Sequence record: PX645697.1
Direction: 5' to 3' (one strand)
DNA length: 64,000 bases
DNA from: a phage
The translations under genes and the position numbers were made by a program. Below, one piece after another: positions 42,709 through 44,818 of the stretch. Position 1 is the stretch's first letter. The number at the start of each line of letters is the position of its first letter. The notes beneath the pieces are model-generated. The model saw nothing but the letters and a program-made list of their open reading frames with translations. It made no database searches and was not told where the DNA came from.

Positions 42709-44739
42709 TTAACCTCTATTCAATGAACATTTAGGAGAATTACAATAAACTTGATTCATAGAACCAAGCGTACAACTTTCAGCATCGCGCCACGGAATCT
42801 GCTTAAAACACTCTGAGCAGTAGCCGAGGGTTGACCACATTGCTTTGGTGAAGTCAGTACTTCGGTTTCCGTCGAAGCTGACAACAGTTTTGCGGAGAGC
42901 TGTTCGTGATTCAGGAAACACACCTGCTTTCTCAGCAGGTTCCTCCTTTTTTGGCTTAGTTGAGATTGCAAAAATACTGTTGCTACGTTTCTCAACATAA
43001 GCATCAACAACATCCTCCAGAGTGATGCCTGTCTGTTTCGCTGAGGAAGGTAATACAGTCATACGACCAATCATATCTTCAGTTACACGTAAAGCAAACT
43101 CAGGACGACGGGCGTTTGTTGTATCTGTTGCTTTAATCCAGACATAACCATCTTTGATCGTAGCATTAGATACCTTCTTCTTTACATCTACAGCGCAGAC
43201 TTTACAGATATCTTCACCACGAAGACGACTAAGTTCTTCATCGAACTCATTCTCCGTTTTAACTTCACCGCAGATTTCACAAACACCAATAGGAGTTTCC
43301 TCCTCTTCTTCCTCTTTAGGTTTAGTCAAACCTTCCAGACATTCAGTATGCCAATAGCACTGATATGCGAAGACTGCTTTAGGTGCATCCTTCCAATCAA
43401 TGTGCTTGTCACAACCACCACAGTCACCATGAGAGTGTGCTTCCCAGAATTTACGAGTGATAGTAACGCCATTCTTGTTGACGAAACTATCATTCATGTC
43501 AAAAGGGATATCATCATCAAAGTCAGCAGTAGTAGACTCAGGCTCCTTTTTCTCCAGAGATGGGTCAACAAAACGACCTGCTGTGATCACTAAACGAACC
43601 ATAGCATTAACTTCGGAGATGCAGGATACTGTCCCACGGTAAACAATTTTAGGGTCTTTCAGTGCGTCCTGATAAGCCTTAATGTCTACGTTATGAACAT
43701 CACCTTCGATGTACTCTTGAGACTTCTCATCGTAGATATAGCCAATCATCTTACCACGAGAAGGAACAGCACCAGCAGTTGCATAAGGAACAAACTCATG
43801 CGGAGTGATTTCCACAGTCATGTCGCGGCGAATGTCAATGTTTCGATCGCTTGCGATTTTGTTTTGACTTACCACTGCGTTTCTTCGACGAACGTCTGCC
43901 GCTGTCACTCCCGGCTTCGTGTCGTAAGGATTGCTTGTATTGCTTTTTGAGGAATTTTGATAGTTGCTTTGGCTGTAGTTGTTCGAGTAATAACTGGCCC
44001 AACGATTGACTACCGTAAAAACCGGAAGCTCGTGGGCGACCTCTTCAACCAGAGTCATACTGTTGTTTGACATATCAAAGATATATTCTGTACCAACTTT
44101 ACATTCAAAATGCTCGTCAATACGATTCTTATGAGACTTAGAACGCTTCAGAATCCACATCAACATATCTTCTTCAGAAGCACCAAACCAATCTCTGTTA
44201 CAACGTGCGAGGTGGAATGGACGCTCTTCGTTACGGATGATATGAAGACGGTTATCAGAAGCATCATGCCAGATTAAAGTGAAAGCACCATCCAGCTTTT
44301 GAATAGTCTCTGCTGCACCAATAGTGTTAATAGAGTGGCAGATGTTCTCACTGTCTACCTCGAAGTTTTTGCTGTCAGGTAACAGATCTTGGTCCATCAA
44401 GGTTCCATTATGAACCAGAGTGATGTTACCATGTTGGAAAGGATGGGCGTTCTTGGCGTTAACTGCACCTTTCGTTGCATGACGGCTGTGACCAACAATC
44501 CATGAAGGTGCTACAGTGTAAGCTGTTTCACCAGTGGTGTGCTTCTTGTACTCATCTTGTAGGATGAATGCGAAAGAAGGAAGAGCTTCTTTATAAGTGA
44601 AGACTTCCTTAGTGCTTTTACGCTGACCAAAGATACCGGAGGAGTGTTGTCCTCGGAATACACCAGCATAAAAGAGTTGGTTAAATACGTCTAAATCAGT
44701 GCTTGACAGATTACCGCCAGCTAATACGATGCCACAAAT
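42709..44739 (-). CDS. Ntn-hydrolase / class-II glutamine amidotransferase domain fused to a Cys-rich C-terminal domain; proposed AUU start
   Basis: Track ORF 42709..44400 extended: same frame upstream encodes (I)CGIVLAGGNLSSTDLDVFNQLFYAGVFRGQHSSGIFGQ..., a GAT-II-like N-terminus with Cys directly after an ATT codon; in-frame TAG two codons upstream; AGGTGGA 7 nt upstream of ATT. Confidence 0.5.
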   Translation of the reverse strand: MCGIVLAGGNLSSTDLDVFNQLFYAGVFRGQHSSGIFGQRKSTKEVFTYKEALPSFAFILQDEYKKHTTGETAYTVAPSWIVGHSRHATKGAVNAKNAHPFQHGNITLVHNGTLMDQDLLPDSKNFEVDSENICHSINTIGAAETIQKLDGAFTLIWHDASDNRLHIIRNEERPFHLARCNRDWFGASEEDMLMWILKRSKSHKNRIDEHFECKVGTEYIFDMSNNSMTLVEEVAHELPVFTVVNRWASYYSNNYSQSNYQNSSKSNTSNPYDTKPGVTAADVRRRNAVVSQNKIASDRNIDIRRDMTVEITPHEFVPYATAGAVPSRGKMIGYIYDEKSQEYIEGDVHNVDIKAYQDALKDPKIVYRGTVSCISEVNAMVRLVITAGRFVDPSLEKKEPESTTADFDDDIPFDMNDSFVNKNGVTITRKFWEAHSHGDCGGCDKHIDWKDAPKAVFAYQCYWHTECLEGLTKPKEEEEEETPIGVCEICGEVKTENEFDEELSRLRGEDICKVCAVDVKKKVSNATIKDGYVWIKATDTTNARRPEFALRVTEDMIGRMTVLPSSAKQTGITLEDVVDAYVEKRSNSIFAISTKPKKEEPAEKAGVFPESRTALRKTVVSFDGNRSTDFTKAMWSTLGYCSECFKQIPWRDAESCTLGSMNQVYCNSPKCSLNRG

Positions 44740-44818
44740 TTTCTAATCCACCTGAAGGGTAAACCCTTTCATCTAATTAACCTTTAAATTGTGCCCCTTT
44801 ATCAGAGACACCCATTGA

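Follow-up and report, generated by a model that had tools for sequence, protein, structure and literature searches.

An AUU codon as the probable start of a class-II glutamine amidotransferase gene in phiEco32-like phages, set in a hairpin-Shine-Dalgarno initiation region

Described systems and the phage locus

The codon AUU is read by the initiator tRNA as formylmethionine (fMet), is discriminated against by initiation factor 3 (IF3), and is a poor initiator in E. coli, reaching a few percent of the efficiency of AUG or less. The textbook E. coli cases are infC and pcnB. Here we compare these and other described systems with a gene for a class-II (N-terminal nucleophile, Ntn) glutamine amidotransferase found in a 64,000-nt stretch of phage DNA (record PX645697.1; hereafter the window, on whose scale all coordinates are given). 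Read on the minus strand, the gene (42709..44739) comprises 676 codons from an ATT to its stop and would encode a protein of 76.2 kDa before methionine removal. We consider it very probable that this full-length enzyme is translated from AUU 44739-44737, positioned by an AGGUGGA Shine-Dalgarno sequence (SD) inside an initiation region in which a hairpin, the SD and an AUU or AUC codon (AUY) follow one another, and that the initiator Met is then removed.

The infC gene is like the phage locus in having GGAGGA exactly 7 nt before its AUU (caattGGAGGAataaggtATT), but no hairpin stands by its SD (-0.8 kcal/mol, z = +1.0). Moreover, infC encodes an initiation factor and underlies IF3 autoregulation, whereas the phage gene does not encode one, so that any dependence of the latter on IF3 would amount to sensing. 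The pcnB gene (poly(A) polymerase I), whose weak start is thought to keep expression low, shares with the phage gene an AUU start and a strong SD (GAGGTG, -9.8 kcal/mol), but it has a 4-nt spacer and no adjacent hairpin (-1.3 kcal/mol). In Streptomyces, the non-canonical GTC start of the regulatory gene sigR is reported to be repressed by IF3, which makes sigR translation IF3-sensitive (PMC5472188). This is a precedent for the regulatory use of weak starts, although codon, organism and gene class all differ from those of the phage gene. We know of no hairpin-SD module for sigR. The operator of phage T4 gene 43 (DNA polymerase) has a hairpin immediately 5' of the SD and is bound by a repressor protein; it resembles the phage leader in that a short hairpin abuts the SD, but the T4 gene is AUG-initiated.

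Among enzymes, GlmS, PurF and AsnB share with the phage protein a Cys-1 followed by Gly, Arg, Asn-Gly and Asp motifs, as well as a match to the Pfam family GATase_6. E. coli PurF and GlmS mature by Met removal, as we propose for the phage protein, in which an extension of ~440 aa at the C-terminus takes the place of the sugar-isomerase, phosphoribosyltransferase or synthetase domain.

The region is 98-99% identical to phiEco32-like coliphages (Kuravirus, Gordonclarkvirinae), with 97 matching phage records, and the gene is the homologue of phiEco32 phi32_83 ("glutamine amidotransferase"), with length and start as in the coding sequence (CDS) of EU330206. As annotation the AUU start is not new, since it is already present in some curated records: the CDS starts on ATT in phiEco32 (EU330206, 2008), its RefSeq copy, SU10, LAMP and the BASEL phage Bas90. 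On AUU or ATT starts in phage amidotransferases we found nothing relevant in the searchable literature, whose limits mean that this is no proof of absence. Within that literature, the ~20% frequency of AUU/AUC starts, the hairpin-SD module and the 55-nt invariant leader set out below appear to be undescribed.

The probable initiation codon of the amidotransferase gene

Around the start site, the minus strand reads ...CTTC AGGTGGA TTAGAAA ATT TGT GGC ATC GTA..., with the inferred initiation codon ATT (AUU as fMet) at 44737..44739, the catalytic Cys-1 codon TGT at 44734..44736 and the SD, AGGTGGA, at 44747..44753, for which a duplex of -7.2 kcal/mol with the 16S tail is predicted. The 7-nt spacer between SD and ATT, TTAGAAA (44740..44746), holds an in-frame TAG (44745-44743) and an AAA (44742-44740); the same spacer recurs in an independent lineage (L103/L156) behind a different hairpin. 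The original prediction, made from the letters of this DNA, had given the positions of TAG, ATT, TGT and AGGTGGA and the 7-nt spacing, and we confirmed every coordinate. It had further held that the frame is open for 112 codons upstream of the TTG-ATG at 44400 and that no ATG, GTG or TTG lies between the stop and 44400, and both statements proved correct on the minus strand: the first in-frame canonical start past the TAG is TTG 44400, with ATG next, and 114 codons separate the stop from this TTG. These 114 start-free codons are the largest value for any long open reading frame (ORF) in the window, the next genuine gene having 18, and at the window's in-frame start-codon frequency of 0.046 the chance of 112 codons without a canonical start is ~0.005.

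The upstream stretch translates as CGIVLAGGNLSS..., and the N-terminal 240 aa of the 676-aa translation match Pfam GATase_6, 7 and 4 (GATase_6, 55.1 bits against a cut-off of 27). In a profile of 11 phage homologues, the Cys aligns with residue 1 of mature E. coli PurF (1ecb) and with residue 2 of Met-numbered human GFAT. C1-G2 is invariant in both of our homologue alignments (A1 and A2), as are R85, H109-N110-G111 and D128 among the phage homologues aligned, and in GlmS the aligned counterparts of the phage motifs GHNRxAT, HNG and VDSE are AHTRWATHG, VHNG and ETDTE. Across the 112 codons upstream of TTG 44400, the ratio of nonsynonymous to synonymous divergence (dN/dS) was 0.08-0.10 at a dS of 1.3-2.1, near saturation (three genera compared), and we therefore conclude that the Ntn domain is translated.

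These results bear on the alternative that the Ntn domain is untranslated, such that a 563-aa protein is made from TTG/ATG 44400 and the upstream frame is a relic or a sequencing artefact. Gene callers limited to ATG, GTG and TTG do give the 44400 ORF; the Paul CDS starts at the TTG/ATG equivalent of 44400, many other records annotate internal starts, and the SU10 proteomics table lists 63.8 kDa for this protein. However, the low dN/dS at saturating dS over the codons that would be lost means that they are translated, and a protein begun at 44400 would have its first residue just past the HNG oxyanion motif and be devoid of Cys-1. The context of the ATT is, moreover, identical in 97 independent GenBank records, ruling out a sequencing error at the ATT, which the original prediction had named as grounds for abandoning it, and leading us to reject a laboratory amber mutant as well. 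The listed 63.8 kDa is merely the mass of the database entry, as it corresponds to the truncated 563-aa ORF (63.88 kDa) rather than to the full protein (76.17 kDa). We regard an untranslated Ntn domain as excluded for practical purposes, with hardly any probability left to it.

To compare start codons across the family, we collected homologues from GenBank phages by tblastn and from IMG/VR by two profile scans, which gave 166 loci with 122 distinct leaders. The codon directly before Cys-1 was ATG in 87 of these leaders, TTG in 8, GTG in 1, ATT in 18 and ATC in 7, the single exception reading ATG-TGC-TGT. One further candidate from an 18-mer scan (L097) was a chance match and not an amidotransferase. 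In the first sample of 78 loci, the frame from the preceding stop to the Cys held no canonical start at any ATT/ATC locus except L077. Distant cellular relatives of PurF type from alphaproteobacterial genomes, used as a control, carry GAA or GAG before the Cys and an open frame upstream (...DDDKLHEE/CGVFG), and this propeptide signature of a Glu codon plus open frame was never found among the 122 distinct phage leaders. That only initiation-capable codons occupy the position before Cys is the best evidence we have for the use of ATT and ATC as starts. The alignment of homologues that the original prediction had called for thus places the Cys at position 2 after a canonical start in 96 of 122 distinct leaders; its assignment of a class-II amidotransferase N-terminus is borne out by the GATase_6 match and the alignment with the PurF and GFAT Cys residues, and AUU initiation, which it had considered the simplest reading, is supported by the start-codon pattern, the SD geometry and dN/dS. 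We infer initiation at the AUU itself from this comparison, which supports it well.

A second route to a mature Cys-1 would involve a mini-ORF, ATG AAA GGG TTT ACC CTT CAG GTG GAT TAG (44743..44772, minus strand; ATG 44772-44770), which lies in frame, encodes MKGFTLQVD and ends at the TAG in the spacer. Ribosomes could start at AUG 44772, read through the UAG and produce a precursor that autocatalytically loses a 12-residue propeptide (MKGFTLQVD-X-KI), as in Bacillus subtilis PurF. Class-II amidotransferases bearing propeptides exist, and cellular PurF relatives show ...HEE/CGVFG. However, in genuine propeptide genes the frame runs open upstream and the Cys follows a Glu codon, and here a TAG stands two codons upstream; uninduced UAG readthrough is very inefficient in E. 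coli, and no suppressor tRNA was found in the window, which has only tRNA-Arg(TCT), or is listed in the complete SU7 genome, which names tRNA-Arg only. The other ATT/ATC lineages, again bar L077, lack an in-frame canonical start upstream, and the 96 of 122 members with a canonical start directly before Cys indicate that the family matures by Met removal. Readthrough with propeptide loss is thus very improbable.

AUU and AUC starts are extremely rare in bacteria, and their presence in ~20% of the distinct leaders of one phage enzyme family is unusual. The ATT/ATC members are scattered among ATG members (nearest canonical relatives, 51-76% identical), and ATT and ATC alternate inside one clade of 79-82% identity (L084, ATT; L095, ATC; L112, ATC). 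Gain, loss or exchange of AUU/AUC starts has occurred repeatedly within the family, which offers a natural comparative system for how ribosomes are brought to accept third-position near-cognate starts and for whether phages time or limit expression by IF3-sensitive ones. Two tandem AUY codons precede the Cys (ATT ATC TGT or ATT ATT TGT) in O4 (L015), L116, L127, L129, L153 and others; only the Cys-adjacent one would give a Met removable by methionine aminopeptidase.

Among the 60 matches listed, the CDS reaches the ATT in 11 of 55 annotated records, and ~80% of the annotated relatives there carry a truncated amidotransferase without the catalytic Cys. In KBNP1711, EP335, SU7/EK010 and BUCT695, for example, the CDS starts at other internal ATGs. 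Standard gene callers ignore ATT and ATC, and this truncated annotation will therefore keep spreading. In KBNP1711, the label 'L-glutamine-D-fructose-6-phosphate aminotransferase-like' sits on the neighbouring amidoligase gene. In Pseudomonas phage TL (L016, HG518155), only misc_features ('translation is similar to...') cover the amidotransferase region, an indication that the gene is disrupted or split there; a recognition site for a site-specific nickase is also marked nearby in the TL record.

The amidotransferase was detected in SU10 proteomics (9 peptides; 23.7% coverage; listed mass, 63.8 kDa). In the 676-aa translation from ATT, predicted residues 1-113 include the peptides GQHSSGIFGQR, EALPSFAFILQDEYK and HTTGETAYTVAPSWIVGHSR, the predicted peptide across the TTG/ATG site at 44400 is NAHPFQHGNITLVHNGTLMDQDLLPDSK, and the predicted N-terminal peptide after Met removal is CGIVLAGGNLSSTDLDVFNQLFYAGVFR.

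Hairpin and Shine-Dalgarno sequence at AUU and AUC starts

Upstream of the ATT, the window has a hairpin, UGAA(A)GGG-UUUA-CCCUUCA (44753..44771, minus strand; RNAfold, -6.1 kcal/mol; core AAGGG/CCCUU, 44768-44755), which reaches up to the SD or shares its first base, and whose 5' arm takes in U and G from the AUG of the mini-ORF. In 76% of the ATT/ATC-start homologues, an equivalent hairpin with an unrelated sequence occupies the same position. In these AUY leaders, a hairpin of 5-7 bp with a loop of 3-6 nt has its 3' end 0-2 nt before an SD of the GGAGGA type, and the SD-to-AUY spacing is 6-8 nt in 25 of 25 leaders (7 nt in 19 of 25). The diversity of the stems is considerable: AAGGG/CCCTT in the window, GAACCT/AGGTTC in L065, GCCCT/AGGGC in L084, GTAGCC/GGCTAC in L080, AACCTC/GAGGTT in O4, AAAGCC/GGCTTT in L165, CAAGCT/AGCTTG in L103, CCTAGA/TCTAGG in L078 and AATGC/GCATT in L075.

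Quantitatively, the folding energy of positions -38 to -10 was -5.35 kcal/mol for ATT/ATC leaders versus -1.24 kcal/mol for canonical ones (p = 1.6e-10), and the corresponding z-scores against shuffled sequences were -1.72 and 0.09. A hairpin of -4 kcal/mol or below was found in 76% of ATT/ATC leaders versus 8% of canonical leaders, and the signal was confined to folding windows whose end lay 0-13 nt before the start codon. We considered whether this excess could be a by-product of intergenic location, and rejected this explanation on comparison with truly intergenic canonical leaders (76% versus 11%, p = 5e-8). The SD duplex was also stronger in ATT/ATC than in canonical leaders (-8.57 versus -7.21 kcal/mol, p = 1e-3). 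TTG and GTG starts had the strongest SDs of all (-9.99 kcal/mol) and no hairpin (-1.42 kcal/mol); strong SDs therefore track any weak start, and the hairpin tracks AUU and AUC specifically.

The two near-identical pairs show different modules in front of proteins that are 99% identical: O4 has a hairpin, GGAGGA and ATC versus GGAGGTG and TTG in PA11, and L165 has a hairpin, GGAGGA and ATT versus AGAGG and TTG in L167. Most members with canonical starts overlap the upstream ORF or lie right against it (gap, -1 to +5 nt); AUY members lie 1-82 nt downstream of it and thus appear to be initiated independently of the upstream gene. A general coupling device in which the stop of the upstream ORF falls in the hairpin loop was rejected, as these stops are 1-82 nt away in no fixed register.

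Both the association of the hairpin with AUU/AUC starts and its position by the SD were observed directly; the role of the hairpin and any part played by IF3 are suggestions of ours. In the mechanism we propose, the AGGUGGA SD 7 nt upstream would position the 30S subunit and the initiator tRNA would read AUU as fMet. The SD-abutting hairpin may stabilize 30S binding, either by stacking on the helix formed by SD and anti-SD or by keeping the SD single-stranded, and the initiation region would probably prolong 30S binding to the mRNA sufficiently to overcome IF3 discrimination against AUU and AUC. Host deformylase and methionine aminopeptidase would then remove the fMet and expose Cys-1, whose free alpha-amino group and thiol would form the catalytic nucleophile. 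A weak start of this kind could keep expression low, possibly IF3-sensitive, and uncoupled from the upstream amidoligase gene. More broadly, and as a tentative proposal only, the order 'hairpin - 0-2 nt - GGAGGA - ~7 nt - AUU/AUC' might constitute a distinct, transferable module that enables or regulates initiation at third-position near-cognate codons, to which the phiEco32 group and some Aeromonas phages would have added a 55-nt operator with a trans-acting partner. If so, expression of the phage Ntn amidotransferases would respond to the ratio of IF3 to ribosomes during infection, and the conserved partner that recognizes the operator could be the ribosome itself, an initiation factor or a protein of the phage.

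The mini-ORF allows for a different mechanism, namely termination-reinitiation, in which translation from AUG 44772 to UAG 44743 unwinds the hairpin and ribosomes restart at the AUU by means of the embedded SD. The geometry is suitable, since the nine codons lie in frame, the stop is 3 nt from the AUU, and an AAGG stands 8 nt upstream of the mini-ORF AUG. The mini-ORF is kept as part of the invariant leader, its ATG...TAG is retained in Aeromonas phage BUCT695 with two substitutions, and reinitiation could help to explain the invariance upstream of the hairpin. On the other hand, both BUCT695 substitutions are non-synonymous and no SD-like sequence precedes the mini-ORF AUG in that phage, the U and G of this AUG are paired in the predicted hairpin, and the other ATT/ATC lineages have hairpin, SD and AUY without a mini-ORF, with upstream stops 1-82 nt away. 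We consequently view reinitiation as unlikely.

Direct initiation at AUU with the aid of the hairpin-SD module must also be weighed against several observations that do not favor it. The module statistics ignore phylogeny, and the independence of the cases rests on how these are scattered over the tree and on the two near-identical pairs. Other AUY lineages have GGAGGA, a stronger SD than the AGGUGGA of the window (-7.2 kcal/mol), and that of BUCT695, AGGCGGA, is the weakest of the three (-5.8 kcal/mol). In the phiEco32 clade, an in-frame AUG followed by UAG provides a formal route for readthrough or reinitiation. The SU10 search used the truncated 563-aa entry and therefore did not locate the N-terminus, and the protein gave as many peptides as its neighbours even though AUU is a poor initiator. 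Lastly, compensation for a weak start does not account for the invariance of all 55 nt of the leader.

The invariant leader and its surroundings

We aligned 5.2 kb from seven genomes of Kuravirus, Suseptimavirus and Nieuwekanaalvirus, in which 53% of columns were invariant. The longest invariant run was 55 nt (44786-44732, TAAAGGTTAATTAGATGAAAGGGTTTACCCTTCAGGTGGATTAGAAAATTTGTGG; runner-up, 24 nt) and spans the upstream leader, hairpin, SD and start; as a feature, this leader of 55-56 nt (44732..44787, minus strand) is identical in the three genera. It is matched at at least 99% by 97 of 97 Gordonclarkvirinae records and at 91% by two Aeromonas phages of another family (BUCT695 type; protein ~54% identical), and it is among the six longest exact matches found when the 64-kb window is set against the complete genomes of SU7 and KBNP1711. 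Other AUY clades, whose proteins have diverged to a similar extent (74-82% identity), have freely replaced the hairpin sequence, so the phiEco32 group carries an extra constraint on its leader. Few elements of these genomes are as constrained as the leader, which borders coding sequence near saturation at synonymous sites (dS 1.3-2.1), and no promoter, terminator, repeat or Rfam family was found that would explain its invariance. Such extreme conservation would fit recognition by a protein, by analogy with the T4 gene 43 operator.

An additional reading is that the 55 nt act first of all at the DNA level or through a trans-acting factor, for example as a promoter, protein operator or antisense RNA target, and that their overlap with the AUU is secondary. 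Conservation does exceed the need of a hairpin, SD and start, as the different hairpins of the AUY lineages at 74-82% protein identity illustrate, and a plus-strand sigma70-like match (TTGACA-16-TACGAT, 44703-44730) would start transcription opposite the ATT. The -35 hexamer of this match is, however, not conserved in SU7, and we rejected it as a promoter and take it to be a probable chance occurrence. The phiEco32 gp36 promoter is a single element, tAATGTAtA, located 6-8 bp upstream of the transcription start (PMC8948821). This consensus is absent from the leader, and the genes mapped next to such promoters do not include gene 83. Neither a promoter nor a terminator was called on the sense strand at the leader, in line with Table S2 of the SU10 authors, which predicts neither there. 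Within the window, no second copy of the hairpin-SD segment was found at up to 3 mismatches, and the 14-mer AAAGGTTAATTAGA from the upstream part of the leader was not over-represented (9 matches at up to 3 mismatches versus 11 expected). Rfam gave only sub-threshold chance matches in 44600-44900 and tRNA only for the whole window. Overall, an element acting primarily at the DNA level or through a trans-acting factor is possible but rather doubtful.

The fold of the 131-nt leader was not significant (z = -1.54). In its minimum free energy structure, an alternative pairing of GGUUUACC with GGUGGAUU would sequester the SD, and a closing stem with codons 3-8 is predicted. Further upstream, just past the amidoligase stop, there is an intergenic hairpin without a U-tract, GUGUCUCU-GAUAA-AGGGGCAC (44791..44811, minus strand). 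This hairpin shows compensatory differences between genera (GTGCC...GGCAC versus GCGC...GCGC) and was not called as a terminator; it may be an mRNA-stabilizing or processing element.

The amidotransferase gene lies in a cluster of early genes. It is flanked on one side by an Amidoligase_2 gene (44819-45922; stop TAA, 44821-44819) and on the other by two small ORFs followed by an ATP-grasp gene (41072-42265). It belongs to the phage amidoligase/ATP-grasp cluster, which is described as being of unknown function (PMC10580990, citing Iyer et al. 2009). The C-terminal ~440 aa of the amidotransferase (42709-44020) match no Pfam domain and include a low-complexity Asn/Ser/Tyr linker and three zinc-ribbon-like CxxC...CxxC motifs (CGGCDKH...C, CEICGE...CKVC and CSECFK...C). 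That this part binds nucleic acid or protein, or has any tie to the conserved leader, is pure speculation.

Several other segments of the window were also highly conserved. A block of ~400 nt at 32804-33196, with minus-strand ORFs at 33005-33190 (61 aa) and 32816-32992 (58 aa), shows almost no nucleotide differences when the window is compared with SU7 and KBNP1711. Within it, the longest exact match of the 64 kb (196 nt) takes in the whole of a small predicted membrane-protein gene together with its synonymous sites; the conservation of the block goes far beyond what constraint on the coding sequence alone would produce. Segments 59583-59663 (81 nt) and 59920-59973 (54 nt) are exact in three genera, with no sizeable minus-strand ORF and no Rfam match, and may be conserved non-coding elements, for instance a regulatory region or small RNA. 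Further exact matches of 56-68 nt in three genera were located at 1822-1889, 52339-52395 and 31096-31151.

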